DNA of 64,000 nt from an uncultured bacterium (GTDB taxonomy: Bacteria > Krumholzibacteriota > Krumholzibacteriia > LZORAL124-64-63): NCBI GenBank assembly GCA_963727525.1, contig CAVSGO010000007.1:1440001-1504000 (forward strand), given 5' to 3'. Below the pieces are notes generated by a model. It made no database searches and was not told the origin of the DNA. It saw only the letters and a list, made by a program, of their open reading frames with translations. Below, in pieces: positions 31,626-60,148 of the stretch. Each line of letters begins with the position of its first letter. Position 1 is the stretch's first letter. Made by a program: the position numbers and the translations under genes.

Positions 31626-33554
31626 TCACTTCCGCGCAAGCGGAACCTTGACGGCGGAATCCATGTCCTTGCTCACGATAACGTCGATCTCGCCGCGCCA
31701 CTGCTCCCCGTCGATGTCCGCCCTGACGGCGAAGGTGTGCTTGCCGGGGCGAAGCTGGACGCGACTCGGCGTCAGCGAGCCGATCGCCTTGCCATCGATC
31801 GAGATATGGGCGCCCGGGATGCCCTGGCCCCCGAAGAGTGCCACGACGGTGACCGGGACCGGACTCACGTCCTCTCCCTGGTCGCCTTCCGAACGGTCCT
31901 GTGACGGTCTGTCGAACGTGAGCCGCCCGAGCTTGCCGGCGACCAGGGTGACGTTCCGTGTGTCCGTGGCCGCCGGGTGGCCGAGATAGCGTACCGAGAC
32001 GACGCGGTCCCCCGGACCGAGCGTCAATGTCGTGTCCCCCCGGACCGTGCCGATCCCGCGGCCATCGACCGTGAGGCGGCCGGGGCTCGCAGGTGGCAGC
32101 GAAATCGCGAGGCGCGCCGTGGCCGGCGGGGGCGGCGGCAGGGCGGCCGCGACGCGGAAGGAATCGACGGTCGACCAGAGCAGGGGTCCGGCGGACAGGG
32201 CTTCTGTCCCGACCCGCCAGTAGTAGGTGCCGGCGGACTCCGGTCGCGCCAGGACGTGGGTGGTGCCGGGACACGCGGCCTGGAACAGAGGCGTCACGAG
32301 GTCGGCGTTGTCCGCCACGACGAGACGATAACCTCTCGCCGCCGCGGAACCGGTCCAGCGGAAGCTCACGAGCGAATCACCGATCACCTCGCCTCGCGGA
32401 GCCAGAACGACGGGCGCCACGGCCCTCGGCTCCGGAGGTTCCGGAGATTTCTGCGGCGTCAGCAGGCGCCACGCGACCACGGCGGCGACCGCGAGCACCG
32501 CGACCACGGCGATCCCCACGCGGAGCCGCACGCGTCCGCCGCCCGCGGCATCCGCCGGCGGCGTCGGGATCGTCGGAGGCGGAGGTGGCGTCGGTGCCTT
32601 CGGTGGCGGCGGCGGTGCCGTCGGCGGCAGCGTGGCCTGCGGCAGCGGGCTCGGATGCAGCACCGCCGGCCCTGGATCCAGCGCTGCATCGGGGTTCAGC
32701 GTTGCCTCGGGATTCAGCACCCCTTGACGGGGCCGGGTCGACGTGCCGGCGCCGGCACGGCCGAGCGCATCGCGCATCGCGGCCGCGGACGGGAAACGTT
32801 GCGCAGGATCCCGGGCGATGGCGCGCGACACCGCGGCTTCGACGTCCGGCGGGATCGCCGGGTTCACCGTCGCCAGCGGGATGAATGTGCCCTCGCGCTT
32901 GGCCTCGAAGATCTCGTAGGTATCCGCACCCTCGAAAGGATACCTGTGGGCAAGCATGTAATAGAGCATCACCCCGACGGCGTAGATGTCGCAGCGGACC
33001 CAGTCGACCGTCTCCGACGTGCGGAATTGCTCCGGCGCCATGTACCGCGGCGAGCCGACCGATGAGCCCACCTGGGTGAGTTCGGGATCCGTCGCCCCCT
33101 TGGCCACGCCGAAGTCGATGATCTTCACCTGGCCGTCGCGCGCGATCATCACATTGGTCGGCTTGATGTCGCGGTGGATCACGCCCTGCCGATGCGCGTA
33201 GTCCAGGATCGTCAGGACGGACTGGACGAGCGCGAGGCTGCGATCCAGGTCCGGCGGCTGGTCGGAGCGGATGAGATCGTCGAGCGTGGGCCCGTCGATG
33301 TACTCCATCGCGATGTAGAAGCGCCCGTTGGCGTCAAAAAAATCCTTGATCTGGCAGACGCCGCTGGTCCCATCGAGCACCGCGAGCTTCTCGGCCTCCA
33401 GCCGAAAGCGCTCGATCATCTGCGGGTCGCACATCTCCTTCAGGACGACGCGCAGGCTCGGGACGTCGCGATGCGCCGCGAGGAATACGGACGCCATGCC
33501 GCCCGCGCCCAGCTTGTGCAGCACGCGATACTTGCCGATGAACTCTTCCACCAT
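31626..33554 (-). CDS. Membrane Hanks-type Ser/Thr kinase with extracytoplasmic Ig/PEGA-like domains
   Basis: LGAGGMASV, VLK, HRDIKPTN, DFG, YMAPE, DIYAVG; Pro-rich linker, TM, PEGA-like (GAHISIDGK..G..TP...L.PG.H). Confidence 0.95.
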   Translation of the reverse strand: MVEEFIGKYRVLHKLGAGGMASVFLAAHRDVPSLRVVLKEMCDPQMIERFRLEAEKLAVLDGTSGVCQIKDFFDANGRFYIAMEYIDGPTLDDLIRSDQPPDLDRSLALVQSVLTILDYAHRQGVIHRDIKPTNVMIARDGQVKIIDFGVAKGATDPELTQVGSSVGSPRYMAPEQFRTSETVDWVRCDIYAVGVMLYYMLAHRYPFEGADTYEIFEAKREGTFIPLATVNPAIPPDVEAAVSRAIARDPAQRFPSAAAMRDALGRAGAGTSTRPRQGVLNPEATLNPDAALDPGPAVLHPSPLPQATLPPTAPPPPPKAPTPPPPPTIPTPPADAAGGGRVRLRVGIAVVAVLAVAAVVAWRLLTPQKSPEPPEPRAVAPVVLAPRGEVIGDSLVSFRWTGSAAARGYRLVVADNADLVTPLFQAACPGTTHVLARPESAGTYYWRVGTEALSAGPLLWSTVDSFRVAAALPPPPPATARLAISLPPASPGRLTVDGRGIGTVRGDTTLTLGPGDRVVSVRYLGHPAATDTRNVTLVAGKLGRLTFDRPSQDRSEGDQGEDVSPVPVTVVALFGGQGIPGAHISIDGKAIGSLTPSRVQLRPGKHTFAVRADIDGEQWRGEIDVIVSKDMDSAVKVPLARK

Positions 33555-45401: not shown

Positions 45402-45953
45402 TCACTCCTCGCCTGAAGGTTGCTGGGCTCCGTCGCCCGCCTCGGTCGAGCCTTGCGCCGCCGGATTCGGCGTCGACGCCAGCGCCTGCAGCAGACTCGG
45501 ATCCTTGAGCATCCGCTCGATCAGAGGATAGGTGCCACTCTTCCCATCCATGTAGGTCAGCAGGTTGGACAGTTGCTGGCGAGCATCGAGCAGCTCCTTC
45601 AATGCACCCACCCGCCGGGCCACCGCCGCCGGCGAGAAGTCCTCCATGTTCTCGAAGGTGAGATCGATGCTGAGATTGCCCTCGCCCGTGAGCGTATTCG
45701 GCACCGTGAATGCCACCCGCGGCTTCATCGCCTTCAACCGGTCGTCGAAGTTGTCCACGTCGATGGCGAGGAACTTGCGGCCCGCGACGTCGCCCGGTGG
45801 CTCCTTGGAGCTGCCCGAAAGGTCTGCCATGACGCCCATGACGAAGGGCAACTGGACCCTCTTCTCGGCTCCATAGGTCTCGACGTCATATTCGATCTGC
45901 ACCCGGGGGGCACGATTCCTCCCGATAAATTTCTGACTGCTAGGTTTCGCCAC
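45402..45953 (-). CDS. tssB: T6SS sheath small subunit TssB (VipA)
   Basis: RAPRVQIEYDVE, LPFVMGVMADLSG, DNFD, F..MEDFSP. Confidence 0.98.
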   Translation of the reverse strand: MAKPSSQKFIGRNRAPRVQIEYDVETYGAEKRVQLPFVMGVMADLSGSSKEPPGDVAGRKFLAIDVDNFDDRLKAMKPRVAFTVPNTLTGEGNLSIDLTFENMEDFSPAAVARRVGALKELLDARQQLSNLLTYMDGKSGTYPLIERMLKDPSLLQALASTPNPAAQGSTEAGDGAQQPSGEE

Positions 45954-47225: not shown

Positions 47226-48653
47226 TCAGTCGCCTCGCAGAGATACGCCGGTGCCTGCAAGAGTTTGCAAGGTCGCAACCGAGATTGCGGCGCGATCCTT
47301 GTGGCTACATAGCGGGATCAATCCCCGCGAGACGAGTCCCTGGATCGCGCGCTCACTCAACCACACCTCGGCACAAGGCTGCATGATCCTGGTCCCGTCG
47401 TGGTCATGCACGGAGAGCGGAAAGCCGTCGAGCGTGAGTTGATCGCGCGGTGTCGATACAGTCGCCATTGCGTGGCGCCGCACGAGCATGAGCGCACAGA
47501 CGTGCGCCGGATTGCCCCACAGGAATGACGTGTGCACCGGAGCCCCGGGCATCTCGTCGAAGGGAAAGGCATCGATCGGATCGGTGCCCGGACCATACGG
47601 CAACCGAAGCAATGCCCGGGGCCAGGCGAGGCCCACGCCGGCCGCTTCGGGGGCCCGGCGCAGCGATTCCCAGTCGGTCTGGAGCGTGACTTCCGGAGCG
47701 GCCCACAGCGCGTCATCCAGCCGCGCCTCGCGCGGCGAGAAACCCACCACCGCAGGATCGGCGGCCGCCAGGAAGACGCTGCCGACCCGCGCTGCGATGG
47801 CCCCGAGGCCCCGCAGGAGGAATACGTCCTCGTCGCTGTCGCCGAAAGCGTAATCGCCGATCACGAGCGACCAGCCGCGCGCACCATGCACCTCGACCTC
47901 GGGCGCGATGATGCGACGATACAGGTTGGCCTCGTCCAGGTGCCCCGAAACGGCGCGCAGATCGTCGCACAGTTCGGCCTTCGTCACGTCGCAGATCACC
48001 ACCTCGTGCTCGTCCCCGTCGTCCAGGTTCTGCACGAGCCAGGCCAGGCTCCGCCAGGTGGCCTCCACCGCCTGGAACGCGGGGTGATGCAGGATCGCGC
48101 GCATGCGGTCGGCGATCGCGCGGTCGCAGGCGGCGTCGCTGGCGTGCTGTCCGGGATCCGGAGCGGGCGCGACATGCGGTGCCACGATCTCGCGGATCAT
48201 GCGGTCCACGGGCGTGGACGGCGGGTCGTCGCCGGATTCGCGGGGCTCCCCCAGGAGCCGTGCCAGGGTCTCGGCATCGCCCTCGCCGGACACGGACCGA
48301 TCGCGCCCATCGTCGCGGCATCGTTGCAAGGCCGTGAAATCGCCCACCTGGTCGCGGAGTGCGTCGGGGTGGAAATCGTCCATTGCCGCGATGGCGATCG
48401 TGGTCGCGGGTTCGGTGGGATCCGCGGGCTCCAGCCTGATGCGGGGCGCCAGGCGCGCCATCAGCTCGTCGATGCCCAGGACATCCACCGGATGGAGCAT
48501 CGGTACCGTCGGGGCGGCCGCGTTACTGCCCGTGCCACGCCCGCGAAAATCGCCGAGTACGAGGATGCGCCCCGGCGCCTCATCCCGCTGCCGACTCCGC
48601 GCAGCGGGTCCCGGGCGTCCGAACGTGAAGCGAAATTCCGAATCGTCCCTCAT
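47226..48653 (-). CDS. TssB-TssC fusion paralogue (sheath-like protein, C-terminally shortened)
   Basis: N-terminal ILVLGDF.G, MDDFHPDAL (TssB-like) followed by ILHHPAFQAVEATWRSL, GDY.F, W.SLR, PR.LLRLPYG, WGN (TssC-like). Confidence 0.85.
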   Translation of the reverse strand: MRDDSEFRFTFGRPGPAARSRQRDEAPGRILVLGDFRGRGTGSNAAAPTVPMLHPVDVLGIDELMARLAPRIRLEPADPTEPATTIAIAAMDDFHPDALRDQVGDFTALQRCRDDGRDRSVSGEGDAETLARLLGEPRESGDDPPSTPVDRMIREIVAPHVAPAPDPGQHASDAACDRAIADRMRAILHHPAFQAVEATWRSLAWLVQNLDDGDEHEVVICDVTKAELCDDLRAVSGHLDEANLYRRIIAPEVEVHGARGWSLVIGDYAFGDSDEDVFLLRGLGAIAARVGSVFLAAADPAVVGFSPREARLDDALWAAPEVTLQTDWESLRRAPEAAGVGLAWPRALLRLPYGPGTDPIDAFPFDEMPGAPVHTSFLWGNPAHVCALMLVRRHAMATVSTPRDQLTLDGFPLSVHDHDGTRIMQPCAEVWLSERAIQGLVSRGLIPLCSHKDRAAISVATLQTLAGTGVSLRGD

Positions 48654-48664: not shown

Positions 48665-49651
48665 TCAGGCTCCACTGGCCCAGCGCAGGTAGTCCTCGAG
48701 ACTCGCCGACGGCGACTCGAGCACCGCACGCAGATCGGGCGCCATCCTCGCCTCCGGGGGCTGCGTGCCGTAGGGGCGATCGAGATAGCTTATCGATTCC
48801 AGGCTGGTTTGCGCATCGAGCAGGCTGACCCAGTGACTGCCCAGCGGACGCGACTGGAAGTAGAAATAGTGGCCGCGGTCCGCATCCGCCTCCGACGTCA
48901 TGCGCACACTCCAGATCCGGGACAGCGCGCGGCCAAGGTATCGCTCCGTGAGGTCGAGCCAGAAACAGCTCTCCCGCCCCCCGGCGTCCCCGATCGCGTG
49001 CGCGAGGGGATAGCGAAGTCCGCCCCGGAACGCGCGCGCGTCGCCACGCTTGGCCGGCGCGAGCGTCTCGACGAGAGCCTGGAACACCGTGAACGCCCTG
49101 CTGGCGTCCGCCGCGCCGGCGTCACCGCACAAGGCTGCGGGATCGACCCGCGTGGCCACGTATTGCCGGTAACCGCCAAGGAGCACAGCGTCATCCGGTC
49201 GCGGCAGCGCCGCCAGCGACTGCATGCGCCCACGCAGATCGGCCCGCGTTTCGCTTCCCACGATCGCCGCGAGCGAGCCTGCGATCTGCTCCTGCAGCGC
49301 ACTCATCCGCAGCATGTTCAGCACCGCCGATGACGCCCCGCCGCGCACGCTGGCAAACACCGCGAACGGGTGCTTGCGACCCGCGGCATCGCCGCTCGGA
49401 CAGATCACGCCCGCGAGCCGGCGGTCGTCGCCGACCTCCCACAGAAACCGCAACCACGGGAAGTCCATCAGCCGCCGATCGCAATCCTGGCCGAATCGCG
49501 CCTTCGCCAGCCCGATCCCTTCGCCGATCCACAGGTCGAACTGGGATTCGCCGAACCCCGGGGCATCCTCGACGATGAACTCGCGGCTCAGCGGCAGCTT
49601 GCCGAAGCAACCGAAACCCATGATCTCGTAAGCTGCGCCACCGGGACTCAT
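48665..49651 (-). CDS. tagF: T6SS-associated TagF-like protein
   Basis: GCFGKLP...EFI, GV..PS.D..GR..PF; ATGA overlap with the tssM stop. Confidence 0.85.
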   Translation of the reverse strand: MSPGGAAYEIMGFGCFGKLPLSREFIVEDAPGFGESQFDLWIGEGIGLAKARFGQDCDRRLMDFPWLRFLWEVGDDRRLAGVICPSGDAAGRKHPFAVFASVRGGASSAVLNMLRMSALQEQIAGSLAAIVGSETRADLRGRMQSLAALPRPDDAVLLGGYRQYVATRVDPAALCGDAGAADASRAFTVFQALVETLAPAKRGDARAFRGGLRYPLAHAIGDAGGRESCFWLDLTERYLGRALSRIWSVRMTSEADADRGHYFYFQSRPLGSHWVSLLDAQTSLESISYLDRPYGTQPPEARMAPDLRAVLESPSASLEDYLRWASGA

Positions 49652-52600
49652 TGGGATACCGACTCCTGGATCGAGAACGAGCGAAATATCGAGCCGCGCA
49701 GGAAGAACGGATCCACGTCCTCGAACGGCGTGAGCGTGAACTCGACCGCAACGCCCTGATCGGGGAACGTCCACGTCACCACCCGGACAGCGTTCTGCGC
49801 GTCGATCTGGTCGGCAGCATCGAAGAGCTTGCAGATGTCCCAGACCGACTCCTTGAACTGGAGACTCGCCACCGTTTCCGGCGGGTTCGAGCGCTGTAGC
49901 GCCAGCCCGCACGTCAGATCCGGATCGTCGCTGCGCCAGGTGTAGCTCTTCTCCCTCTTATTCATGTAGTCGACCAGCTCGCCGCCGTTGATCGTCAGCA
50001 CGACCTTGTCGATCTTCCGCCAATTCGCGTCGCCCCGCGGGGTGCCATCGGAGCGAACCCCGCGCGCCATGAGGGTGAAGCGCGCCTGGAATCCGCTGTC
50101 CGTCATCCGGAGGTCTTTCTGGAGGTCCTGCGCCTTCTCGATGACGGCGTTGGCCCGGCGCCCCGGATTGCCGCCGTTGCCGACCATGAAGCTGTGGAAC
50201 GCGGCCATCTTGCCGTTCGGCCCGAGGAGCCCGATCACGTCCATGGGATCGGCGTTCTTGCCGCCGATACGGAAGGGGTAATACGGTGCAAGCTGCTCCG
50301 CGTAGAGACGATACGTGTCGGTCCAGTGCTGTTGCAGGTCGCGTTGCCGGGCGCTGCGCGAGTGCGCCACGATCACACGACTCGCGGTATCCAGCGGCGT
50401 CTCCAGCAACCCGGAGATGGCGGCGGCGAGCTGGCCCTTGCGATCGGCCTCGAAGTTCTCCACCCAATTCTTGGCGTCGAGCACGGCGTTCTGTTTCGGC
50501 GTGGTGCCACCTTCCTTGCAGGCGTAAACCTCGCTCTGCACGTCGGCGAGCAGGTCGCCGTATTTGCCGGCCGGCGTCTGCTCACTGCCCTCGGGGCTCG
50601 CGAACAGCGTCGTCAGCGGTTCGAGCTGCTTGGCGATGCTCTTGATCGCCTCCGGTTGCGTCGCGCCCTTGTCCAGGCCGCCCGCCAGCGGATCGGCCGC
50701 CGACGCCGCCTGGCGCAGCATACGGAAGAGCGGCGACTCGGAGGTCGACTTCAGCTTGCGCAGGTCCTGATCGTAGTCGTCGCAGCTCTCATAGCTCCTC
50801 GCCAGACGCACGGAATCGAGGAAGCGCGTCCACTCCTGGACATAGCCCACCATGTACAGGCTCAGCAGATCGTCTGCGGACGGAACGCGGCCCGTGGGCT
50901 CCCCGCCAGCGAGCGTGATGATCGCGTTGTCCGCGTCGACGGTGTCCTTGACGTTGCGGATCTCCCGCCCCACGTACTCTCGCCACCCGTCGCGCGAGTA
51001 GCCGAAGCGCACGTCCTCGCTCGCCGCGAGGATGTCCTGGCCCGGAACCAGCGCCGACAGCGTGAGGTCGTCCTGCTCCTGGCTCGCCCCGACGATGATG
51101 CCCCGGAAGAACTCCTGCGTCTCGTGGGTGTCGCTGAGTCGACGCGCACCGCGCCCGAGTTCGCGCGACCGTTCGAGACCCGGCAACGGCCGCTCGAGTG
51201 CGAGAAATTCGGCCGCCATGGCCTTCAGCTCCCGATCGATCGCCTTGCTACTCTCCTGACCATTCAGGATGTAGGGTCGCAGGCCGGCGGCCAGGTCGGC
51301 GGCGTCCCAGCCGATCGCGTCGTGCTTCGCGGGCATCAGGAGCATCAGCTCGGTCCGCAGCGCGCTACGCACCTTGCTGGCCGGCAGCCCTCCGGACCCA
51401 TCGAGATCGCTGGCGATCGCGCGCTCCGCCGGTCCGAGGATGCGTTCCGTGATGGCCCGGTAGTAGACGTCCTGTGCCGCGCGATGGACCGCATCCGTCA
51501 CGATCAGGGGGAACGACCGCCATGACCCCTGGATCCGCTCACGCAGGGTATCCAGACGCGTGAGTTCCTCCACGGGTGTCGCCTGCGAGGAGGGCTCCAT
51601 CAACTCCTCGGCGATGTGCTGCGTGCGGTCCATCCGCGTCCGTAGCCGCACGTAGGAGGTGCCGATCCACACGCACCCGAGGAGGCCGAGCGCGAGGAAC
51701 CCCGCCGACACGAACAGAGCGAGCCGCGACCGTTTGCGCGCTGACACGCTGGTCAGCCGCACGAGGTCGCGATCGGTCTTCAGAACCTTGGCAAACAGGT
51801 CGCGGACGAAGTACGCATCGTCCTTCGGCTCCTGCTCGGCGACCGCAGACGCATCCGCCCGGGCGCCCAGCATCTCGTGGATCTTGCGTACGACCAGATC
51901 GAACGGCTTGCCCTCCTGCATGCCGCTCGAGAAGTAGGTGCCCCGGAAGATCGGCACGTCGCGACGATAGGGATTGGCCTCGAACAGGGTCTCGACGAAA
52001 AGGACCAGCCGATCCTTGAGATTGCCGTACTCCTCGGGAAACATGAAGACCCGGCCCCAGTTCTCGCTTCGCGAGACCGCGGACATGCGGCCCGGGCGCA
52101 TGGCCCGCAGATTCGCGATCAGCAGGTCGAACTCGCCGGCAAACCGTACCGCCGCATCCTGATCACCCTCCGGCTTCGGCGTGTAGACCGCGCCCCAGAC
52201 CTGGTAGCGATCGACCGGCGACAGGCGCTCGAAGTATTCCGCGAATCCCGCAACCAGGTCGCACTTGGTGAAGAGCACGTAGACCGGGAAATTCCAGCCG
52301 AGACGGTCGAGGATCTCGTCCATGCGCTGACGCAGGTCGCGCGCGCTGTTGATGAGAGCCATCTCGTCCTTCTCGTACAGATCCTCCATGCTGTAGGCGA
52401 GAATGAGCCCGTCGATCGGCCCGTGCTTACGATATGTCTTCAGCATGTCGAGGAACGCGAACCACTCGGCCTCGGTCTCGCTACGATCCACACCCTCGGC
52501 GTATCGGCCGGCGGTATCGAGCAGGATGGCGTCGGAGGAGAACCACCAGTCGCAGTTGCGCGTCCCACCGGAGCCCCGCATCAGCTTCGCCGTCGTCATG

Positions 52601-53037
52601 CCGGGAAAGTTGAGGCCGGAGTTCTTGATCGCCGTGGTCTTGCCGATGGCCGGCGGACCGATGATCAGGTACCACGGCAGGGTATAGAGCGCCTTCTTGC
52701 CCTGCGGGCCCTGCTTCAGGAGCGCCAGCGCCTCCGCGAGATTGCGCTGCAGAGCTTCCACGTTGGATCGGTTCGCCGGCGCGGCCTGCTCGACGCCCGC
52801 CTGGGCCTGGCCCATGATCCCGTCCTCGATCGCCTTGGCGCGCCGCCGTTCCACCATCCACTTCACACCGAGGAACACGGCCCAGGCCACGATCACGACG
52901 ACGACGGCCAGCACGATGGCCCAGCGCGGGATCACGCGCAGGAAGGGGAACCGCGCCCGCGCCATCATGAGGGCGATGACGATGACCAGGAGCACTCCGA
53001 AGGGAGCGAGGGTCTTCTTGAGGATCGCGAAGAACAT
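49648..53037 (-). CDS. tssM: T6SS membrane complex TssM (IcmF)
   Basis: LYTLPWYLIIG...GKTT, TRNCDWWF, LLDTAGRY, FPVYVLFTKCDL.AGF.EYF, RG.YF.S..Q.G. Confidence 0.96.
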   Translation of the reverse strand: MFFAILKKTLAPFGVLLVIVIALMMARARFPFLRVIPRWAIVLAVVVVIVAWAVFLGVKWMVERRRAKAIEDGIMGQAQAGVEQAAPANRSNVEALQRNLAEALALLKQGPQGKKALYTLPWYLIIGPPAIGKTTAIKNSGLNFPGMTTAKLMRGSGGTRNCDWWFSSDAILLDTAGRYAEGVDRSETEAEWFAFLDMLKTYRKHGPIDGLILAYSMEDLYEKDEMALINSARDLRQRMDEILDRLGWNFPVYVLFTKCDLVAGFAEYFERLSPVDRYQVWGAVYTPKPEGDQDAAVRFAGEFDLLIANLRAMRPGRMSAVSRSENWGRVFMFPEEYGNLKDRLVLFVETLFEANPYRRDVPIFRGTYFSSGMQEGKPFDLVVRKIHEMLGARADASAVAEQEPKDDAYFVRDLFAKVLKTDRDLVRLTSVSARKRSRLALFVSAGFLALGLLGCVWIGTSYVRLRTRMDRTQHIAEELMEPSSQATPVEELTRLDTLRERIQGSWRSFPLIVTDAVHRAAQDVYYRAITERILGPAERAIASDLDGSGGLPASKVRSALRTELMLLMPAKHDAIGWDAADLAAGLRPYILNGQESSKAIDRELKAMAAEFLALERPLPGLERSRELGRGARRLSDTHETQEFFRGIIVGASQEQDDLTLSALVPGQDILAASEDVRFGYSRDGWREYVGREIRNVKDTVDADNAIITLAGGEPTGRVPSADDLLSLYMVGYVQEWTRFLDSVRLARSYESCDDYDQDLRKLKSTSESPLFRMLRQAASAADPLAGGLDKGATQPEAIKSIAKQLEPLTTLFASPEGSEQTPAGKYGDLLADVQSEVYACKEGGTTPKQNAVLDAKNWVENFEADRKGQLAAAISGLLETPLDTASRVIVAHSRSARQRDLQQHWTDTYRLYAEQLAPYYPFRIGGKNADPMDVIGLLGPNGKMAAFHSFMVGNGGNPGRRANAVIEKAQDLQKDLRMTDSGFQARFTLMARGVRSDGTPRGDANWRKIDKVVLTINGGELVDYMNKREKSYTWRSDDPDLTCGLALQRSNPPETVASLQFKESVWDICKLFDAADQIDAQNAVRVVTWTFPDQGVAVEFTLTPFEDVDPFFLRGSIFRSFSIQESVSQ

Positions 53038-53038
53038 C

Positions 53039-53719
53039 CTAATCCCCCCCCAGCGCCCGTACGATGTGCGCCGCGTGCCGGTCCAGCAGGTTCCAGCTCA
53101 GGAGCCAGAGCACGATCGGCACGAGTACGGAAACGAGCACCACCGCGGGCCAGGGAAACCGTTTGATCGGCTGCAGGCGTCCGCCCTCGGGCACTGGCAG
53201 CCCGTCCGGCGCAAGGACGGACATCCGGGTGCCGATCTCGTGGGACAGCTCGTTGACGAGGTCGGCGTGCTCGCGTTCGGATTCGATGAGGCGCCCCCGG
53301 AAACCGGAGATCAGGCAGTAGTAGAACACCTCCACGACCTCGAGACGAGGCGGCACCGCCCGGCGCACTTCCGCGAGCTTGTCGAAGAAGCCGTCGCCGA
53401 CGAACTCGTCGTTGCAGTAGTGCTTGGCCAGAGCATCCGCCTGCCATTCGCCGCGACCGTTCCACGTCGCCGTGAGCAACGTCTCGTCGATGAAGGCCGC
53501 CATGGCGTAGCTTGCGTCGCGGATGTCGTCATCAGCCACACCCTCGTCGCGAGCCTGGCTGCGAAACTCGTGGAACATCCGATCGACGGATCGCCGCAGA
53601 TCGGGGAAGCCGTCGAGATCGTGGCTGCGCTTGAGGACGATCGCCAGGGAGAGGAGCGAGGCCGCACTCCGGGCTAGCCGGCCCTGCCGCTGTACGTCGC
53701 GCTGTGGAGTCGAACTCAT
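53039..53719 (-). CDS. tssL: T6SS membrane protein TssL (DotU) without OmpA domain
   Basis: YA..AF.DE, W....L, G..FF..L, EV.Y.CL..GF.G, C-terminal TM. Confidence 0.93.
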   Translation of the reverse strand: MSSTPQRDVQRQGRLARSAASLLSLAIVLKRSHDLDGFPDLRRSVDRMFHEFRSQARDEGVADDDIRDASYAMAAFIDETLLTATWNGRGEWQADALAKHYCNDEFVGDGFFDKLAEVRRAVPPRLEVVEVFYYCLISGFRGRLIESEREHADLVNELSHEIGTRMSVLAPDGLPVPEGGRLQPIKRFPWPAVVLVSVLVPIVLWLLSWNLLDRHAAHIVRALGGD

Positions 53720-55104
53720 GCGCCTCCCTCCAGCCCGAGCAGCTCGAACTGCGCTGCCAGGAGATTCCGCGGGATGTCCATCGCCAGCGCTCGGCCCGCC
53801 GCGATGGCTTCCCAGTCCTTCTGCGCCTCGGCCGTGCTGCCGCGGGTGTCGAGCTGATAGTACCACGTGTTCCGGCGGCGCGGGATCGCCGGCGGCGGCA
53901 CCGTCACCAGCTGCAGCGGCAGTCCGCGCAGATTCATGCTGAGCTTCTGCTCGATTCGATCTGGACTCGCCACGATGATGCGCTTCGCGCTCTCCAGGAC
54001 ATCGCGTTCCCCGATGCTCTCGCTAGCGATCGAGAGATAGAGCCCCGCCGTGGGTTGCAGGAGCGCGTCCTTCTCGATCTGCGCCTGGAATCGGCCCTCG
54101 CCCGTCGTCGTGAGCGGGATCACGACATAGCCGTGGCTCGCCCCGCTCTCCAGCAGCTCCACGATCATCCGCTGCAGTTCCGCGAAGACCGGCCCCGCAT
54201 CCTCGTGCACGTACGCGGGCACGTCGCGCGGATGCATGCGGCGCGCATTGAACGTCGCGAGCTGCCCCACGAGGCCGGCGAGCGTCCGGTAGAGCTGCTC
54301 CGGATGGGCGGCCGGCGTCTCCCGCAGATGCGCGAGATGCGGGATGGCGCCGTTGACCACGAGGAACCGCAGGAACTCCCGGAGATTGGCCGGCGTGATG
54401 TCGCGCCCATCGGCGCCACCCTCCGTGAAGCGCTCCGCCAGGCCGGAGGAGCGCACCACCAACCGCTCGAGCAGCGCCCGCGTCAGATGCACCAGATGCG
54501 CCGAGCCTTCGATCGCGAGCAGCGGCGGCACGTAGTCATCGACGAGCTGAAAGCCGCCGGCGGCGCTCTTCGCCACCCGAGCGATGCGCAGGCACTCGAA
54601 ATTGTCGCGCGACTCGACGCCCGTGAGCAGACGGAGGTTCAGCTCCGCGCGCTGGATCGTCCGCTCGTCGCGTCCGGTGTTCTCGTCCTCGATCGCGAAA
54701 GCCTTGGCGAGGTAGCGCACCTCGGCTCGATCCTCGGAGGCATCCTCGGCGAGCCGGCAGTTCGGCCAGCCGGTGCGCCGCAGGGGCAGGCCGAGATACA
54801 CGTCGAGAGAGTCCATCCGTAAATCGAAGGAATCCCGTATGTCGATGCTCGGCGGCGCCGGATCGATGTCTGGAAAGCACACCGAGGTCCCGCCGGGCAT
54901 CACGCCGCGGCACGAGAGCACGCGCAACGTACCCGAGGCCAGGCCCTCGGGATCGATCTCCAGCGAGCGCACGCCCCACGGATGGGGAGAACCCAGCGCC
55001 GCCCGCTCCGCCAGCTCGTATTGCTGGAAGAGCCCGGCCTGCTGGAAGTGATGGGGCGTGAGAAAGAGTCCCTCGCTCCAGAGAATCCGATGGAACCGAG
55101 CCAT
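53716..55104 (-). CDS. tssK: T6SS baseplate TssK
   Basis: W.EGLFL.PHHFQQ, WG...L.ID, G.MP.G, YVPP.L, HPE.LY..L..L.G.L.TF, Y.H. Confidence 0.96.
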   Translation of the reverse strand: MARFHRILWSEGLFLTPHHFQQAGLFQQYELAERAALGSPHPWGVRSLEIDPEGLASGTLRVLSCRGVMPGGTSVCFPDIDPAPPSIDIRDSFDLRMDSLDVYLGLPLRRTGWPNCRLAEDASEDRAEVRYLAKAFAIEDENTGRDERTIQRAELNLRLLTGVESRDNFECLRIARVAKSAAGGFQLVDDYVPPLLAIEGSAHLVHLTRALLERLVVRSSGLAERFTEGGADGRDITPANLREFLRFLVVNGAIPHLAHLRETPAAHPEQLYRTLAGLVGQLATFNARRMHPRDVPAYVHEDAGPVFAELQRMIVELLESGASHGYVVIPLTTTGEGRFQAQIEKDALLQPTAGLYLSIASESIGERDVLESAKRIIVASPDRIEQKLSMNLRGLPLQLVTVPPPAIPRRRNTWYYQLDTRGSTAEAQKDWEAIAAGRALAMDIPRNLLAAQFELLGLEGGA

Positions 55105-55152
55105 GCCGAGGGCCTCCTGTCCGATGCCGACCGCGTACCGCCGAATCCGTGC

Positions 55153-55614
55153 TCAGTCCTGGGTCACCACGATGCAATCGTCGAGCACCCTCACGCCGAT
55201 CTTCAGCTTGGCGCCGTCCTCGACCGGAATCTTGGTGCGCGCGCAGGGTTTGGCGTCGGCAAAACCCGCGGCGATGACGATCCACCGGATCTGCGGGTCG
55301 TAGTTGCTCATGTCGATCATATGCGCCTGATCACCTGGATAGAGCGGGAACACTTCCTTGTGGACGATGCCCGGCTGCGAGACGCCGTTCGGGTCGGCGA
55401 GCTGGATGTTGTCGATGTTGTTGAGTGCGGATTCCTGGCTGAGGAAATAGGCACCGACCCAGGCCGGCTGGTTCAGATCCGCAGGTCGATCCAGGTTGAT
55501 GCGGATGTAACGGCCGCCACACCCGGCCAGCCCCAGCAGGCAGACGCCAAGCAGGCAGAGTCGAAGCCGACACGCGGCCGCACGACGCCCCTCATTCATA
55601 CTGACTCCCGGCAT
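55153..55614 (-). CDS. Lipoprotein in the tssJ position, probable divergent TssJ
   Basis: Lipobox LAGC; DLN...V..Y.L, L.PG, R.I.I.A.F pattern; TGATG coupling to the upstream gene; precedes tssK. Confidence 0.65.
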   Translation of the reverse strand: MPGVSMNEGRRAAACRLRLCLLGVCLLGLAGCGGRYIRINLDRPADLNQPAWVGAYFLSQESALNNIDNIQLADPNGVSQPGIVHKEVFPLYPGDQAHMIDMSNYDPQIRWIVIAAGFADAKPCARTKIPVEDGAKLKIGVRVLDDCIVVTQD

Positions 55615-56498
55615 CAAGGCTCCTCCTCCATCTTGTCGCGGTAGGCACGCTCGAACCGACCACGGTAGTAATGGTCGATATTGCGATCGAACTGATTCCA
55701 GAACTCCTCGAAGCGTCGTTCCAGCTCCTTGACCATGGCAGGGTACTTCAGGATGCTCGTCTTCGCCGACTTCGGGTCGAGGTGCTCGAGGACTTCGCGG
55801 GTGCCGCCCTTCCACGACTGCTGCGCTCCGGCCATCAGCGCGCCGGGCAGGATCTGCAGCAACCGTAGCTGCCGCTGCACCGCGTCCATCTCCTGCCGGG
55901 AAAGCGCCTCGCCCGCCGCCAGACGGGGCAAGAGTGTCCCCAGGCTCCGCTGCGCATCGCTCGGCGAGCCCTTCCCGACGGTGTCCTGAACGGACCTCGC
56001 CGTCACCTCCTGGTTGAAGGCGAAGGCGAAGAGGAGCACCGCGACATCGACCAACATGCCCTGCGCGGCCGGCGACAGGTCCCTGGTCCGGGGCGCGCCA
56101 GCGCCATCGCGGGACGGCAACGGACCGGCGGCGGCGCCCGCGAGGCGTGCCATGTGGTCGTCGGCGAGGGCCCCCCGTTGCTGGAGCCGGTCGCGTTGCG
56201 CCGTGAGCTGCGCCACCTGGTCCTCGAGCGCGGCCAGGCGCTCCGTCATGTCCTGGTTCGAGCGATCCGTCTCGAAGACCCGGTCGGGGAACCGGTCGCG
56301 CAGCTTGCGCACCAGCTCGTGGATCTCGTCCCGGGTGAGACCCGCCGCATGCTCGTGGATGGCCAGGCGCAGCACAGCCTTGCGCTGGTCCTCGGTTGCG
56401 AACTCGCTGCTCCCCAGGACGGCACGCAGTTTCTGCGCCAGCGACCTGACGGTGAGACCGCGCTCGGCGGCCGTCCGCATTGCTGTCACCGTCTTCAT
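55614..56498 (-). CDS. Coiled-coil protein with Fha/TagH C-terminal-like domain, no FHA domain
   Basis: ALMAG.Q......VL..LDP ... F...AY C-terminal pattern (ALMAGAQQ...LEHLDP...YYRGRFERAY). Confidence 0.6.
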   Translation of the reverse strand: MKTVTAMRTAAERGLTVRSLAQKLRAVLGSSEFATEDQRKAVLRLAIHEHAAGLTRDEIHELVRKLRDRFPDRVFETDRSNQDMTERLAALEDQVAQLTAQRDRLQQRGALADDHMARLAGAAAGPLPSRDGAGAPRTRDLSPAAQGMLVDVAVLLFAFAFNQEVTARSVQDTVGKGSPSDAQRSLGTLLPRLAAGEALSRQEMDAVQRQLRLLQILPGALMAGAQQSWKGGTREVLEHLDPKSAKTSILKYPAMVKELERRFEEFWNQFDRNIDHYYRGRFERAYRDKMEEEP

Positions 56499-58717
56499 CA
56501 CGGCTTGGCCTCCCGGGGTGGGAACACCATCGTCTGGTCGAGATTGTCGGGCATGGTCCGGGTCTGGCCCGACCGGGCGGCTTCCTCGAGGTCGGCGAGG
56601 AAGTCGTCGCACACCGCCTGCACGCTCGCATTTCTACCCGCCGACCCGATCAGCGAACCGCGCGCGCGCTCGGCGAGTTCCTCGAGTTCCTGCACCACCG
56701 TCTGCAACGGTTGCGCCGGGTCGGCCGGATCGAAGTCGTCCTGCGCGCCACAGATGCTCCAGCCCGCCACGTTCGACGCCATGCGCAGGGCGAGCAGGAG
56801 CGCATCATTCCAGAGGCTCGCCGGGATGGCGGCGTCGACGGCGTCGCGATCGATGGCCCGGTACAAGACCTCGCGCGCGCCGGACGCGATCCCGGCCGAC
56901 TGCAGGGCCGCCTGCAGCCGCGCATACTCCGCGCTCACCCCACCGCCGCCCGGGGTGGCCACCGCAACGGCGAGCTCGCCTGCCAGGCGCGTGTCCACCT
57001 GGCTCAGATCCTGACCGTCGTTCGCCAGGAGGACCCGCAGCATCACCAGGCCCAGGCTCATGACGTCGGCCGGCGCCGCGAAGACATGCACCAGGGTCAC
57101 CTCGACGTTGGTCGACGTCGCGAGGTCGGTCGACTTCAACGCGGCGCACGTATCCGCGGACAGGGCGCCCGCCGTGCCGGTGAACCGAAAGCCTCCGGCG
57201 ACCGACGCCGTCTTGCGGCCAGAAAACACGATGCGCTGGTTGGCCGCGGACCCGACCACGAGCACCACGCGCACGAGATCGCGATTTCCATGGTCGGCGG
57301 CGCGATAGAGATCCGGAGCCGTCAGCCGCGCGGTGAACTGCGCGCGCCACTTGCCGGACGTCTCCTTCACATCAAGGTTCTCGAGCGCGAGGCGCATCGA
57401 GAGATGCTCGATCTGCGGCCGCCCCATCGCGGCGGGCAGGTAGGCTTCGGGGCACGGATAGGGAAGCCCGGCGACACCTGGTTCGCCCTCGATGCGATCG
57501 ACATCCAGCTCGAGGGGCCGCGCCGTGGTGAGCAGGTCTGCGATCTCCACCGCCAGCCCCCAGCGCACCGGTACGATGGCCGGACCGGGCAAGAGCCGGG
57601 CGCGCAGACGATCGGGCGTGAGGGCCAGATGCGGGTCGCCCGTCGCCTCCAGCAAGTCCTGCGCGCCGCGCGCGAGATCGGTCATGGCCGCCAGCTTGAG
57701 GTAGAGCGCCTCCAGGGCCGATAGACCGGTGGCGTCGCCCTCGAAGTAGACCTGACGACCGGCCTCCCCGAACGCAGCCAGCGCCTCGCGCCGCAGCGGC
57801 ACGTCGCGCGCGGATTCTCGCGTGGCGTCGTTCAACCCGTCCGGATCGGCACCGCCGAGGAACGCCACCGCCTCGTGGAACCCGAGGGGCGCGGGCTCCA
57901 GGGGAATCCAGTGGAAATCGTAGTAGGCGAGCGGAAAGAGCAGATCCTCCGCCGGCACGCGATCGTCGACGTGACGGTTCGCGGGATAGCACGCCGCCCG
58001 ATGTTCGCACCGGAAGCACGGATGCCGCTCGGCCGCATCCTCGCGCGCCGCCGCTTCGGAACCCGCGATGACGGCACCGAGATCCCGGTACAGCTCCGAT
58101 CGCCGCCGCACCGAGATGCCGTCGGCGATTCGCTCGAACCGCCGCAGCGAGAACGTGTAGAACACGGGCGCGCGGCCCTTCCCCTGGGAGCACGTCGGAC
58201 AGGTCAGGAACCGCACGAGGCCGTTCTCGTACGACGGCAAGCCGCTGCGCCGCAGGAGATTCTCGTCGCGGCAGGTGTGCATGACACCGAGGCACGCCGG
58301 GCAGAGGGGCGTGATGTACGCGCCGGTCTTGCGGCACCACGCCAGCGGCGCATGGCTCGGCAAGTCGCCATCGCTCGCCGAGGCCGGCAAGGCCCGCCTC
58401 TCGAGCTGCGCGACGGAGCGCGATGCGGTGCGCTGGTAGCGGCGGAACCCCTCCCGCCAGATGCGCTCGATGGAGAGGTTTCCGATAGCCGGCGAGCCCG
58501 CGGTACGCGACCCCGGGTACTCGTTCGGCTCCATCAGGATCGTGACGTGCGGCACGAACACCCGACCGTCCACCTCCACCGACGCGAGATAGGCGCGCAG
58601 CGGATGAGCGTCGGCCAGCAGGCGGATGAAGGGATCCGTCGGCATGGACCCATCCGCGGCAGAATCGGCCCGGACGTGCAACCGGATGGGCGAGGGAAAA
58701 TCCTTGTCGGCAGGCAT
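56498..58717 (-). CDS. Uncharacterised Cys-cluster protein with degenerate kinase-like motifs
   Basis: CPAC, CPTC, CFRC..R..C; HLALTP and DVMSLG motifs; GGGAG RBS; coupled to the next gene by TGATG. Confidence 0.75.
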   Translation of the reverse strand: MPADKDFPSPIRLHVRADSAADGSMPTDPFIRLLADAHPLRAYLASVEVDGRVFVPHVTILMEPNEYPGSRTAGSPAIGNLSIERIWREGFRRYQRTASRSVAQLERRALPASASDGDLPSHAPLAWCRKTGAYITPLCPACLGVMHTCRDENLLRRSGLPSYENGLVRFLTCPTCSQGKGRAPVFYTFSLRRFERIADGISVRRRSELYRDLGAVIAGSEAAAREDAAERHPCFRCEHRAACYPANRHVDDRVPAEDLLFPLAYYDFHWIPLEPAPLGFHEAVAFLGGADPDGLNDATRESARDVPLRREALAAFGEAGRQVYFEGDATGLSALEALYLKLAAMTDLARGAQDLLEATGDPHLALTPDRLRARLLPGPAIVPVRWGLAVEIADLLTTARPLELDVDRIEGEPGVAGLPYPCPEAYLPAAMGRPQIEHLSMRLALENLDVKETSGKWRAQFTARLTAPDLYRAADHGNRDLVRVVLVVGSAANQRIVFSGRKTASVAGGFRFTGTAGALSADTCAALKSTDLATSTNVEVTLVHVFAAPADVMSLGLVMLRVLLANDGQDLSQVDTRLAGELAVAVATPGGGGVSAEYARLQAALQSAGIASGAREVLYRAIDRDAVDAAIPASLWNDALLLALRMASNVAGWSICGAQDDFDPADPAQPLQTVVQELEELAERARGSLIGSAGRNASVQAVCDDFLADLEEAARSGQTRTMPDNLDQTMVFPPREAKP

Positions 58718-58880
58718 GGAGCTCCCGGAGATAACGGCACCAAGGCGCATGCGCGCGCAACCGGAGACGGATAGCGAGATTAGAACAAACGAAGACTGGA
58801 CCCGTCAAGGGGCCAGGCGGATCGATGACGGGCGACCCGAAACGGAGCGTCGCGAAGCCAAGCGCGCCATTTCCTGGGAG

Positions 58881-58985: not shown

Positions 58986-59609
58986 ATGGACGGTGACGAT
59001 CGCTTCCCCACTCCGCCGTCTCCCCAACGAGACGATCCGGACTCGACCCACGTGAATGCGCCGGGACCGCTGGAACCCGTCGAGCCACCCCAGGCTGCGC
59101 CCGCGGTCCCGCCCGTGCTCGGCGTGGTCGTCATCTATTCCGAAACCCACGAATCGGCGGCCGAGAACGACACGCGGCTCGGCTGCGTGTATCCACTACG
59201 CGAGGGCGAGGTTCTCGCCGTGGGCCGCACTCCGGTCCCGAAGAACGTGACGCGAAGCGACGGCGACACCGTCGCTCCCACCCACCGCCATGTCTTCCCG
59301 CACGGGGAACCATTCCGGTGCGTCTCGCGGTTACACGTCACGATCGAGTTGCAGCCCGGCGGCAAGGCCATCCTGGCGGATCACTCGCGATACGGGATCT
59401 ACCTGGAGAACGCCGAGACCTGGCACCGCCTCCCCGCCACCGAGAAGACGGCCGTGCACACCATCACCGAGCCTGAACATGTGGTGCTCATGGATCTCGA
59501 GGGCAAACCGGCCCGGCCCGACCTCGCCGATCGCCGCAGCCACTACCGCCTCTCGATCCTGCACTTCGCCTGGCTCGGCGCCGGTGCGCGCCAGGAGGCG
59601 CATTCATGA
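58986..59609 (+). CDS. FHA-domain protein
   Basis: Pro-rich N-terminus; VGR, VSRLH, DHSRYG motifs in FHA order. Confidence 0.7.
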   Translation: MDGDDRFPTPPSPQRDDPDSTHVNAPGPLEPVEPPQAAPAVPPVLGVVVIYSETHESAAENDTRLGCVYPLREGEVLAVGRTPVPKNVTRSDGDTVAPTHRHVFPHGEPFRCVSRLHVTIELQPGGKAILADHSRYGIYLENAETWHRLPATEKTAVHTITEPEHVVLMDLEGKPARPDLADRRSHYRLSILHFAWLGAGARQEAHS

Positions 59610-60148
59610 GATGTTCCGCCTGCTATGCCGAGAATCCCCCGTGGGCCACGATCTGCACGGACTGTGGCAAAGCCGTACTGCGCCTCGAGTTCTGCGCGGG
59701 CGGCCACCTCCTGCCGCCCGGAGCCCAGGAATGCCCCGTCTGCCCGCACCTGTGGCCCGAGGTCACCGCATTCGACGGCGCACCTCTCCTGCGGGGGATC
59801 CTCCTGGTTGAGAAGGGGCGGCTGACGAACGCCGACGACCCGGCCGATTACCTGCCCTACGTCGAGATCCGCGATCGCGAGCAACCGCTCGTACTGACGC
59901 ACGCACCCAATGAGCAGGTCACGATCGCCAATGACGACGCCGCCGGAACCTGCCGCGTCCTGATGCGGCCGGAGGGCGTGCAGGTCTGCGGTGCCGGCTT
60001 CGCGCACGAGCACGCGGGCCCACGCGTCTACAAGGCGCTCGGGCCGGACGACACCTTCGTTCTCGGGACCACCACGTTCCGCCACATCGCGTTCGACCCG
60101 CCCGCCTGGTCGGTGAAACTGGCGGAGAGTCGGCACCCGGACGGCTGA
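59606..60148 (+). CDS. Double zinc-ribbon protein with degenerate FHA-like C-terminus
   Basis: CSAC..ENP....CTDCG, C..GH......CPVC; LGPDDTFVLGTTTF final strands; ATGA overlap. Confidence 0.65.
   Translation: MRCSACYAENPPWATICTDCGKAVLRLEFCAGGHLLPPGAQECPVCPHLWPEVTAFDGAPLLRGILLVEKGRLTNADDPADYLPYVEIRDREQPLVLTHAPNEQVTIANDDAAGTCRVLMRPEGVQVCGAGFAHEHAGPRVYKALGPDDTFVLGTTTFRHIAFDPPAWSVKLAESRHPDG

Follow-up and report, generated by a model that had tools for sequence, protein, structure and literature searches.

Post-translational control of firing by type VI secretion systems (T6SS) has so far been worked out for one circuit alone, PpkA/PppA/Fha/TagF of a few Proteobacteria. A module that pairs a pseudokinase with FHA is new for T6SS, but such pairing is already known elsewhere. 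For instance, in work by Gee and colleagues from 2012, a genuine kinase, PknB, reportedly phosphorylates the mycobacterial pseudokinase MviN on Thr, after which MviN recruits FhaA, a protein with an FHA domain. In the T6SS circuit, phosphothreonine formed in a PpkA-dependent manner at Thr362 of Fha1 or Thr14 of TssL is recognized by the Fha protein's FHA domain and sets off assembly of the machine (PMC3953482). In type VIIb secretion, the EssB/YukC pseudokinase does not bind ATP, and the interaction of YukC with the FHA domains of YukB, which lack the residues for phosphothreonine binding, is independent of phosphorylation (10.1101/2020.05.09.085852).

Here we describe a pseudokinase encoded in a 64,000-nucleotide stretch of DNA, referred to as the window. 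Its gene stands at the head of the TssJ-K-L-M operon in a complete T6SS, a position retained across the related loci, and the cluster also encodes a Ser/Thr kinase, TagF and a homologue of the Fha C-domain (Table 1). The gene product is the N-terminal module, here detached, of a lineage-specific T6SS Fha/TagH scaffold, the main context that an earlier note on this DNA had missed, and the large unannotated family to which it belongs is, as judged from sequence, the N-terminal partner of that scaffold. T6SS genes were found in all eight related genome loci, with TssK-TssL downstream in all seven that extend past the pseudokinase gene. The family comprises 779 clusters at 50% identity (E<=1e-3) from Planctomycetota, Eisenbacteria-like bacteria and other uncultured bacteria; neither Pfam nor NCBIfam has a model for it, and a full-text literature search found no paper describing it. 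In a sample of the phylum, the family is present in 3 of 201 genomes and TssK in 20 of 201, and it therefore marks one T6SS variant.

Table 1. Positions in the window of the pseudokinase gene, its parts and the neighbouring genes.
Feature	Position	Strand	Basis
Pseudokinase gene, stop codon included	56498..58717	-	ORF and translation; 739 aa, as in database copy P0002
N-lobe remnant, residues about 29-96	58430..58633	-	beta1-beta3 and alphaC-like helix in model secondary structure
Cys-rich insert, residues 124-245, after the alphaC helix	57983..58348	-	invariant Cys, covariation
Degenerate catalytic loop HLALTPDR, residues 363-370	57608..57631	-	hmmsearch, hhalign
DFG remnant D394-L-L	57530..57538	-	aligned to DFG of the window Ser/Thr kinase (hhalign)
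Beta-rich insert, residues about 436-545, activation segment to alphaF	57083..57412	-	strands 436-543 in model
Subdomain IX remnant DVMSLG (D551...G556), start of alphaF	57050..57067	-	aligned to DLWSMG of ULK3
Disordered C-terminal tail, residues 717-739	56501..56569	-	pLDDT <50
Fha/TagH C-region homologue without FHA domain, 294 aa from ATG 56498	55614..56498	-	hhalign
Downstream operon: TssJ 55153-55620, TssK 53716-55104, TssL 53039-53866, TssM 49648-53037	49648..55620	-	Pfam, NCBIfam
Stand-alone FHA-like protein, about 207 aa, start uncertain, divergently transcribed	58986..59609	+	weak Pfam FHA, E 0.0022
Double zinc-ribbon protein, 180 aa	59606..60148	+	Pfam DZR E 3.3e-4; seven invariant Cys
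Canonical Ser/Thr kinase, far end of T6SS cluster, candidate tail-Thr kinase	31626..33554	-	Pfam Pkinase E 2.1e-41

The longest open reading frame spans 56498-58750 on the reverse strand, and the start at 58717 corresponds to its Met12. The ATG at 58717 is the likely true start, because orthologues begin with MPxxxxFP and a GGGAG sequence lies upstream (58722-58726, 4 nt 5' of the ATG). All motif strings listed in the earlier note (CPAC...C, CPTC, CFRCEHRAAC, HLALTPDR, DVMSLG and GQTRTMPDNLDQTMVFPP) occur in the translation of 56498-58750. The encoded protein, which matches neither Pfam (E<=0.01) nor NCBIfam models, combines a kinase fold, into which two large modules are inserted, with a disordered tail. 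Its features exceed chance, as judged from their conservation across homologues: H363, L364, P368, D551, L555 and G556 are each conserved in at least 90% of 61 diverse family members.

The AlphaFold2 model (pLDDT 81.8, pTM 0.85) displays the N-lobe and C-lobe of a bilobal kinase fold, and the kinase-like lobe proposed in the earlier note is thus present in the predicted structure. When the model was compared with 48,161 PDB representatives using VIA-align, the best 50 matches were all protein kinases or pseudokinases, headed by the IRAK3 pseudokinase (6ruu_A; Z 16.1, rmsd 3.4, 268/285 residues, model range 6-685), with further matches to PknB (1mru_A, Z 14.5) and the Rv3910 pseudokinase (3uqc_A, Z 14.1, 223/246 residues aligned). 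Foldseek, the comparison proposed in that note, recovered no kinase for the whole model and nothing at E<=1e-3, and the fold assignment therefore depends on VIA-align and on weak sequence signals. Thirteen of the 14 hits of the family profile against PDB sequences (hmmsearch, E<=10) are kinases, aligned over the catalytic loop and subdomain IX, and comparison with the window's own Ser/Thr kinase (hhalign, E 1e-4, prob 57.8%) aligns the catalytic loop, DFG and APE. In addition, 6 of the 61 family members give weak Pkinase hits, and all ESM Atlas neighbours with a Pfam family are of kinase type (Pkinase or APH, scores 0.92-0.94). Judged by model and sequence, the product of 56498-58717 is a Hanks-type kinase-fold protein that is predicted to be catalytically dead.

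The connection to Fha takes different forms across the family, namely, fusion, adjacency and fission. Among the six long relatives scanned, five contain an FHA domain and four of these also T6SS_FHA_C, the fused proteins being ordered pseudokinase, FHA, linker motif and T6SS_FHA_C. In all three Planctomycetota loci, the next gene encodes FHA and T6SS_FHA_C (E about 1e-26). No FHA domain (PF00498) was detected by Pfam in the window protein itself; its stop codon overlaps the start of the translationally coupled next gene as TGATG. Orthologues of the product of that gene align with the portion of Planctomycetota Fha that comes after the FHA domain (hhalign, prob 95%, E 3.8e-8, 207 columns, Fha residues 126-349), and two of the five give weak matches to Pfam T6SS_FHA_C (PF20232; best E 5.4e-4, below the cut-off), the window copy remaining unmatched. 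The fused form appears to have lost its FHA domain in the window lineage and to have been cut just past the linker motif, which leaves a pseudokinase with a DQTMV tail, the TGATG overlap and an Fha C-domain protein, with the Fha linker motif having become the pseudokinase tail.

This tail carries the motif D-Q-T729-M-V-F-P-P, with the Thr codon at 56531-56533. The earlier note had made its docking proposal depend on conservation of the tail threonine, and T729 proved to be conserved in at least 90% of the close homologues (alignment A1), with the Thr-hydrophobic-hydrophobic motif in 23 of 26 subclade members (strict matches). The same motif lies 8-30 residues past the FHA domain in all seven of the fused or adjacent Fha forms that could be located, and some relatives (P0115, P0117) have three tandem copies. 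It is plausible that the tail Thr is a candidate phospho-docking site for FHA proteins, a proposal strengthened by the location of the same motif in the fused and adjacent Fha relatives, where it comes straight after the FHA domain.

A candidate reader is encoded next door. The 4.66-Mb genome contains a single FHA match, this FHA-like protein, which scores under the curated Pfam cut-off and whose gene adjoins the pseudokinase gene in four loci (L001, L002, L004 and L005). All five orthologues keep G-[RK], S-R-x-H and S-x-x-G, with Lys for the phosphate-binding Arg in three of the five; the window copy reads S-R-Y-G versus S-T-N-G in the other three. The zinc-ribbon gene, conserved in the same four loci, is co-transcribed with the FHA-like gene and starts within its last four bases. 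Locus L003 lacks the FHA/zinc-ribbon pair in its 3.7 kb of upstream sequence, although the Thr tail is there. As to the kinase, no clearly conserved orthologue of the cluster enzyme was found beside the pseudokinase gene in relatives; a Ser/Thr kinase lies near that gene only in L006 and on the same contig in G203, and the window's genome holds 25 Pkinase matches.

Alternatively, the tail motif could be a conserved Fha linker without a phospho-site, a short beta-strand or peptide docking element directed, for instance, at the Fha C-domain, the beta-rich insert or TssK/TssL, in which case the pseudokinase would be a purely structural adaptor of T6SS assembly, independent of Ser/Thr kinase signalling. 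FHA domains usually read the residue at +3 after the Thr, where only about 11 of 20 close homologues have a hydrophobic one, as read from the alignment; what is conserved is the Thr and two hydrophobic residues. Moreover, the motif always lies just ahead of the FHA_C region, with or without an FHA domain, and no phosphatase of the PP2C_2 family searched was found in the genome. The YukC report provides a precedent for a pseudokinase that binds FHA domains without phosphorylation (10.1101/2020.05.09.085852). Nevertheless, the Thr is nearly invariant and preceded by acidic residues, relatives carry tandem E-x-T-[LVI]-[VI]-L repeats typical of multi-site phospho-acceptor regions, and the cluster includes a canonical Ser/Thr kinase and a neighbouring FHA protein that retains S-R-x-H and G-[RK]; we consider the purely structural reading rather unlikely and retain the tail as a candidate phospho-acceptor.

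The first of the two inserts holds nine Cys that are invariant in 21 close homologues and are Cys in 111-144 of about 150 family sequences. They fall into site A (C128, C149 and C234-x2-C237-x5-C243) and site B (C139-x2-C142 and C173-x2-C176), the four Cys of the latter covarying. All nine are present in 91 of 150 sequences, whereas 32 of 150 combine all five site-A Cys with at most one of site B. Modelled alone (residues 96-320), the insert reaches a pLDDT of 87.4; no analogue was found in the PDB (VIA best Z 3.0, Foldseek best E 0.94). From this pattern, we infer a two-site predicted metal-binding module, with sites that may be structural or sensory. Zn binding is plausible because the Cys are conserved and covary; an Fe-S cluster would likewise be compatible with the Cx2Cx5C spacing. 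FNR and WhiB-like proteins space their [4Fe-4S] ligands as Cx2Cx5C plus a remote Cys, and the resemblance of site A to this arrangement, its complete retention in 123 of 150 sequences, including some that have lost site B, and the lack of a structural analogue among PDB Zn modules could mean that the five family-wide Cys hold Fe-S rather than Zn, as a redox, O2 or NO sensor gating T6SS assembly. However, site B (CPxC...CxxC) is spaced like a classical zinc ribbon, the protein gave no match to an Fe-S family profile and Cys4 structural Zn sites are far commoner in cytoplasmic scaffold proteins, so that we regard an Fe-S sensor as quite unlikely; slightly less likely still is the specific version in which the cluster is O2- or NO-labile and the T6SS is fired via a redox-sensing pseudokinase-Fha switch. 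Were this specific version true, the kinase fold would be a conformational relay from a metal cofactor to a phospho-Thr/FHA assembly module. The second, beta-rich insert contains D480, invariant in 61 of 61 sequences, and resembles FAD-binding beta-barrels only weakly in Foldseek (E 0.03-0.06).

The pseudokinase scaffold advanced in the earlier note is well supported by the substitutions in the active site. Leu61 occupies the position of the VAIK (beta3) Lys, Ala365 that of the catalytic Asp and Arg370 that of the Mg-binding Asn, and because all three canonical residues are gone, the protein is classed as a pseudokinase. The lack of a Gly-rich loop also stands: neither the window protein nor the family has GxGxxG, and the beta1-beta2 region reads PFIRLLADAHPLRAYLA. 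The DFG motif, by contrast, had been called unrecognizable, and its remnant was in fact identified by hhalign; the D394 column is Asp in 37 of 61 family members, with D-L-G in 30 of 61, and in 93 of 169 in the larger set. HLALTPDR aligns to IHRDIKPTNV of the window's own kinase (hhalign), and the family consensus PHLdLsPenv to HLDLKPQN of ULK3 (hmmsearch, PDB sequences), with Asp and Asn in the respective catalytic-loop columns of 18 and 22 of the 61 members. LPA is what remains of APE in the activation segment, and D551 is Asp in 133 of 133 non-gap sequences. Column 61 is Lys in 78 and Leu in 39 of 169 sequences, and the beta3 block reads VTILME in the window protein versus [VF]ALK[IL]Q in distant members. 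Across 118 family members, 9 keep the K+D+N+D set and 29 only the DFG-Asp, which is the pattern of the window protein. Because the full K / HLDLKPEN / DLG set survives in distant members, the family descends from active kinases, and some residual binding of nucleotide or metal may persist, given that D394 and H363 are conserved. These conserved residues, together with D551 and the intact sets of distant members, could suggest an atypical active kinase that itself phosphorylates Fha-module proteins, by analogy with WNK and CASK, kinases with exceptional catalytic residues, but this is highly improbable since the window subclade lacks the beta3 Lys, catalytic Asp, Asn and Gly-rich loop at once, the best structural match is itself a pseudokinase and the protein, absent from the 25 PF00069 matches of its genome, falls under every Pkinase threshold.

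With moderate confidence, we favour the reading in which the window protein is a catalytically dead Fha-partner pseudokinase that acts through a phosphorylated tail Thr as a non-catalytic scaffold or receiver in T6SS control. It probably helps to switch the T6SS on. Control would be exerted post-translationally, at the level of T6SS assembly: the Ser/Thr kinase at 31626-33554 would phosphorylate the tail Thr, the stand-alone FHA protein would bind the phospho-tail, and the pseudokinase and Fha-C module would thereby be brought to the TssJLM/TssK complex, licensing firing. The family physically joins a dead kinase fold with conserved predicted metal sites to the T6SS Fha scaffold and offers a concrete candidate acceptor in the tail Thr. 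Its members also grade naturally from kinases that are near-canonical (K / HLDLKPEN / DLG) to pseudokinases that are fully degenerate, and its fused, adjacent and split arrangements, the last with the FHA domain lost, amount to a natural gene-fission experiment.

Several described proteins share individual traits with the window protein. PknG, an active kinase, has a rubredoxin-like Cys4 metal module attached to its Hanks domain; this module is N-terminal, whereas the Cys module described here is inserted in the fold. GarA/OdhI carry an acceptor of the acidic-T-x-V-F type (the ETTS phospho-switch), the phosphorylated form of which is bound by the FHA domain of the same module, but GarA, unlike the window protein, is a small metabolic regulator. 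No homology of PknG or GarA/OdhI to the window protein was detected in this analysis. MviN of Mycobacterium tuberculosis (Rv3910) likewise contains an intracellular bacterial Hanks-fold pseudokinase domain, the structure of which matches our model, with no detectable sequence relationship beyond the fold; MviN is, however, linked to a membrane flippase, regulates cell-wall synthesis and has neither Cys-rich or beta-rich inserts nor a T6SS link.

EssB/YukC is also a core or accessory secretion-machine pseudokinase that pairs with FHA domains (EssC/YukB), but it belongs to another secretion system in other phyla (Bacillota), is membrane-anchored and has no metal-binding insert. The threonine-phosphorylation pathway of T6SS (PpkA, Fha1/TagH, TssL, TagF) concerns the same machine and follows the same logic as that proposed here. 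As described, that pathway involves no pseudokinase, whereas the window cluster has one; Fha of the window lineage is split three ways, into the pseudokinase-tail, FHA_C and stand-alone FHA proteins; and the candidate acceptor Thr lies in the pseudokinase tail rather than in Fha1 or TssL. For the PP2C_2-type PppA of the pathway, no counterpart was found in the window's genome. The parallels with EssB-EssC of the type VIIb system and mycobacterial MviN-FhaA suggest, by analogy, that pseudokinase-FHA modules could be a recurrent solution for controlling envelope machines.

A complete T6SS cluster lies on the minus strand of the window and is headed by the gene of a putative pseudokinase, which is followed by a 294-aa gene, TssJ, TssK, TssL, TssM, TagF, a sheath-like paralogue, TssA, TssC, Hcp, an ImpE-family protein, gp25-like TssE, TssF, TssG, ClpV, VgrG and, further on, a canonical Ser/Thr kinase (cluster STK). 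In the longest open frame of the pseudokinase gene, Met12 corresponds to the start adopted in an earlier, sequence-only note on this DNA and yields a 739-aa product, equal in length to the identical database copy P0002; this start matches the MPxxxxFP beginning shared by the orthologues and is preceded by GGGAG 4 nt 5' of the ATG. All sequence strings quoted in that note were found in the translation. Neither Pfam (E ≤ 1e-2) nor NCBIfam yielded a match to the ORF. A word-indexed search, with 8000 candidates scored, recovered 24 relatives at E ≤ 1e-3, each unnamed or annotated as ‘hypothetical protein’; these homologues, the confident fold described below and a GC3 of 0.86, similar to that of the adjoining genes, led us to reject the possibility that the frame stays open by chance in GC-rich DNA.

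The protein belongs to a large family. When 1.84 billion representatives were searched exhaustively with phmmer, 779 relatives had E ≤ 1e-3, of which 515 reached E ≤ 1e-10 and 80 reached E ≤ 1e-30. Across 61 diverse members, L155, E336, D480, D551 and W636 are invariant, and H363, L364, P368, L555 and G556 are at least 90% conserved. No curated family in Pfam or NCBIfam covers this group, and a full-text literature search found no paper describing such a protein.

The AlphaFold2 model, for which a 21-row alignment was used as input, has a pLDDT of 81.8 and a pTM of 0.85, with the tail (residues 717-739) below 50. The kinase fold proposed in the earlier note fared differently in two structural comparisons. 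Foldseek searches of the PDB with the whole model had no match at E ≤ 1e-3, and kinases were absent from the matches listed, the best of which were Sen1/Upf1 helicases and FAD-binding barrels (E 0.008-0.06), hits that probably reflect the beta-rich insert of the protein. By contrast, when VIA-align was run against 48,161 PDB representatives, all 50 matches listed were protein kinases or pseudokinases, including the IRAK3 pseudokinase (6ruu_A; Z 16.1, rmsd 3.4, 268/285 aligned), PknB (1mru_A; Z 14.5, rmsd 3.7, 250/269 aligned) and the Rv3910 pseudokinase domain (3uqc_A; Z 14.1, rmsd 3.2, 223/246 aligned). Because model residues 6-685 align to kinases, the kinase core spans the whole protein and accommodates large inserts. 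Sequence comparisons, which do not depend on the model, point the same way as VIA-align. In all, 13 of the 14 matches of the family profile to PDB sequences at E ≤ 10 are kinases (best, ULK3, E 0.063), with the family consensus PHLdLsPenv pairing with HLDLKPQN and pcDlysLG with DLWSMG. Alignment of the family to cluster STK with hhalign (E 1e-4, probability 57.8%, 83 columns) pairs PHLALTPDRL with IHRDIKPTNV, IADLL with IIDFG and AYLPA with YMAPE. Weak Pkinase matches are present in 6/61 family members (best E 6.3e-4), and all ESM Atlas neighbours listed at ranks 2-26 (scores 0.92-0.94) carry a kinase-type Pfam family, namely, Pkinase or, at rank 8, APH.

According to the earlier note, neither a Gly-loop nor HRD nor DFG was recognisable. 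This holds for the Gly-rich loop, which the family alignment lacks in all members, and for HRD, the catalytic loop being HLALTPDR with Ala365 and Arg370, but not for DFG, the position of which can be located through the pairing with cluster STK and reads D-L-L. In addition, VTILME stands where distant relatives have [VF]ALK[IL]Q. Of 169 aligned sequences, 118 have a residue at every key column; nine of these keep the full K, D, N and D set, for example, HLDLKPEN with DLA or DLG, and the family therefore descends from real kinases. In 29 of the 118, only the DFG Asp is left; this is the pattern of the window protein, the subclade of which is fully degenerate.

Two inserts, delimited by our reading of the secondary structure of the model, interrupt the kinase core (see the table). 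The nine Cys of the first are invariant in 21 close homologues and all present in 91 of 150 family sequences, whereas in 32 of the 150 the five Cys of site A are kept and at most one of the four in site B is left; this covariation as two units defines the two sites. The spacing in site A is that of the 4Fe-4S ligands in FNR and WhiB. Residues 96-320 folded alone gave a pLDDT of 87.4, and no PDB analogue of this model was found with VIA-align (best Z 3.0, the match falling on a helical end piece) or Foldseek (best E 0.94). We therefore refer to the insert as a module that has no detectable analogue in the PDB, short of a proven new fold.

Features of the pseudokinase, its T6SS cluster and compared loci
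Feature	Position	Strand	Remarks
Pseudokinase gene, longest ORF	56498..58750	minus	750 aa
Cys-rich module	residues about 124-245		after alphaC-like helix
Site A	C128, C149, C234, C237, C243		Cx2Cx5C plus two remote Cys
Site B	C139, C142, C173, C176		two CxxC knuckles, zinc-ribbon-like
Beta-rich domain	residues about 436-545		between APE remnant and alphaF
Overlap of pseudokinase stop and next-gene ATG	56500-56496	minus	tgatg
FHA-like protein (FHA neighbour)	58986-59609	plus	divergent from pseudokinase
Zinc-ribbon protein	59606-60148	plus	180 aa; double zinc ribbon at the N-terminus, with 7 invariant Cys
Sheath paralogue	47226-48653	minus	475 aa; Pfam VipB N-terminal E 1.5e-50 (175-463), weak VipA (22-114)
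TssC	43903-45405	minus	normal TssC
Cluster STK	31626-33554	minus	Ser/Thr kinase
CsgG-like pair	29174-31620	minus	two proteins with CsgG-like segments, one also with TPR repeats
TPR + CHAT (caspase-like) protein	13351-16125	plus	924 aa; outside T6SS cluster
PEGA-domain Ser/Thr kinase, locus L012 (G046:C4)	4183-6678		830 aa
PEGA-domain Ser/Thr kinase, locus L013 (G056:C25)	4120-6609		830 aa

Eight related loci were identified in public genomes labelled as Eisenbacteria, ‘Fibrobacteraceae’, Planctomycetota or unclassified. T6SS genes are present in all eight, TssK-TssL lie downstream in all seven that reach past the 3' end of the pseudokinase gene, and the divergent FHA and zinc-ribbon pair recurs in four (L001, L002, L004 and L005). 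In a sample of 201 genomes from the phylum of the window, the family was found in three and TssK in 20, indicating that the pseudokinase family marks one T6SS variant. Two pseudokinase-less T6SS loci of the same phylum (L012 and L013) encode an active-looking PEGA-domain kinase, with two short ORFs between it and the downstream TssK; FHA-domain proteins, one of which carries an SLT transglycosylase domain, precede the kinase. Searches for an orthologue of cluster STK in five related genomes had dozens of paralogous kinases among the matches listed; the CsgG-like proteins encoded directly downstream of this kinase in the window may be its envelope-side partners. The additional sheath gene between TagF and TssA looks like a fused TssB-TssC-like paralogue; L001 has a conserved copy (36% identity), and conservation is weaker in other related loci.

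Several lines of evidence connect the pseudokinase to Fha, the T6SS scaffold with FHA and T6SS_FHA_C domains. Of six long relatives scanned (1090-1135 aa), five have an FHA domain on the C-terminal side of their kinase-like part, and four of the five also have T6SS_FHA_C. In all three Planctomycetota loci, a canonical T6SS Fha is encoded by the next gene (FHA E about 1e-20, T6SS_FHA_C E about 1e-26). The profile of orthologues of the 294-aa next gene aligns to residues 126-349 of the Planctomycetota Fha, that is, its post-FHA part (hhalign probability 95%, E 3.8e-8), and Pfam T6SS_FHA_C is matched, weakly, by two of five orthologues; a BLASTP comparison of the next gene with a fused relative was not significant, so that the homology is seen with profiles only. 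The end of the FHA domain could be located in seven of 11 fused or adjacent Fha sequences, the pattern failing in four, and all seven have a T-hydrophobic-hydrophobic motif after it and before the FHA_C region (EDQTLVV, DRTVVA, EQTVVL, EQTMVH, GRTMAF, GGTIAA and SATVVP). The tail of the window protein, LDQTMVFPP, thus corresponds to the Fha linker motif. The arrangement in the window looks as if a fused ancestor had lost its FHA domain and been split behind the linker motif, a direction of change that we infer.

The Thr of this tail, T729, had been proposed as a phospho-docking site for FHA proteins, and its conservation, at least 90% in the 21 close homologues, was borne out. Among 26 subclade members, T[MVILY][VIM] is found in 23 tails, and TRV, TKV and TVS take its place in the remaining three; it also occurs in 7/31 other stand-alone members. 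Two of the latter, P0115 and P0117, carry three tandem E-x-T-[LVI]-[VI]-L copies, which points to multi-site variants of this linker or acceptor element. The sole FHA match of the 4.66-Mb, 96.7%-complete genome is the FHA neighbour, at a below-cut-off E of 0.008; G-[RK], S-R-x-H and S-x-x-G are kept in all five of its orthologues, and its hhalign match to the Fha FHA domain is weak (probability 33.8%, E 4e-4). Complex prediction for the full pseudokinase and this neighbour, run without controls (score 0.01, mark 0.32), speaks neither for nor against binding. The zinc-ribbon gene starts inside the final four bases of the FHA-like ORF, and the two genes are always found together; the C-terminal domain of its product, about 110 aa, is conserved and without a family match. 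With 25 Pkinase matches, mostly in open frames of 800-1100 aa, one sub-threshold FHA and no match to PP2C_2, the signalling set of this genome is unusual, kinase-rich and reader-poor.

We rate the pseudokinase-FHA regulatory module, with its putative metal-binding insert without a structural analogue, as new for T6SS. MviN-FhaA, PknG, GarA and FNR/WhiB are further systems with which it can be compared. Two published studies provide precedents for its parts: in T6SS activation, pThr is read by the FHA domain of Fha (PMC3953482), and, in YukC-YukB, a secretion-system pseudokinase binds FHA domains (10.1101/2020.05.09.085852).
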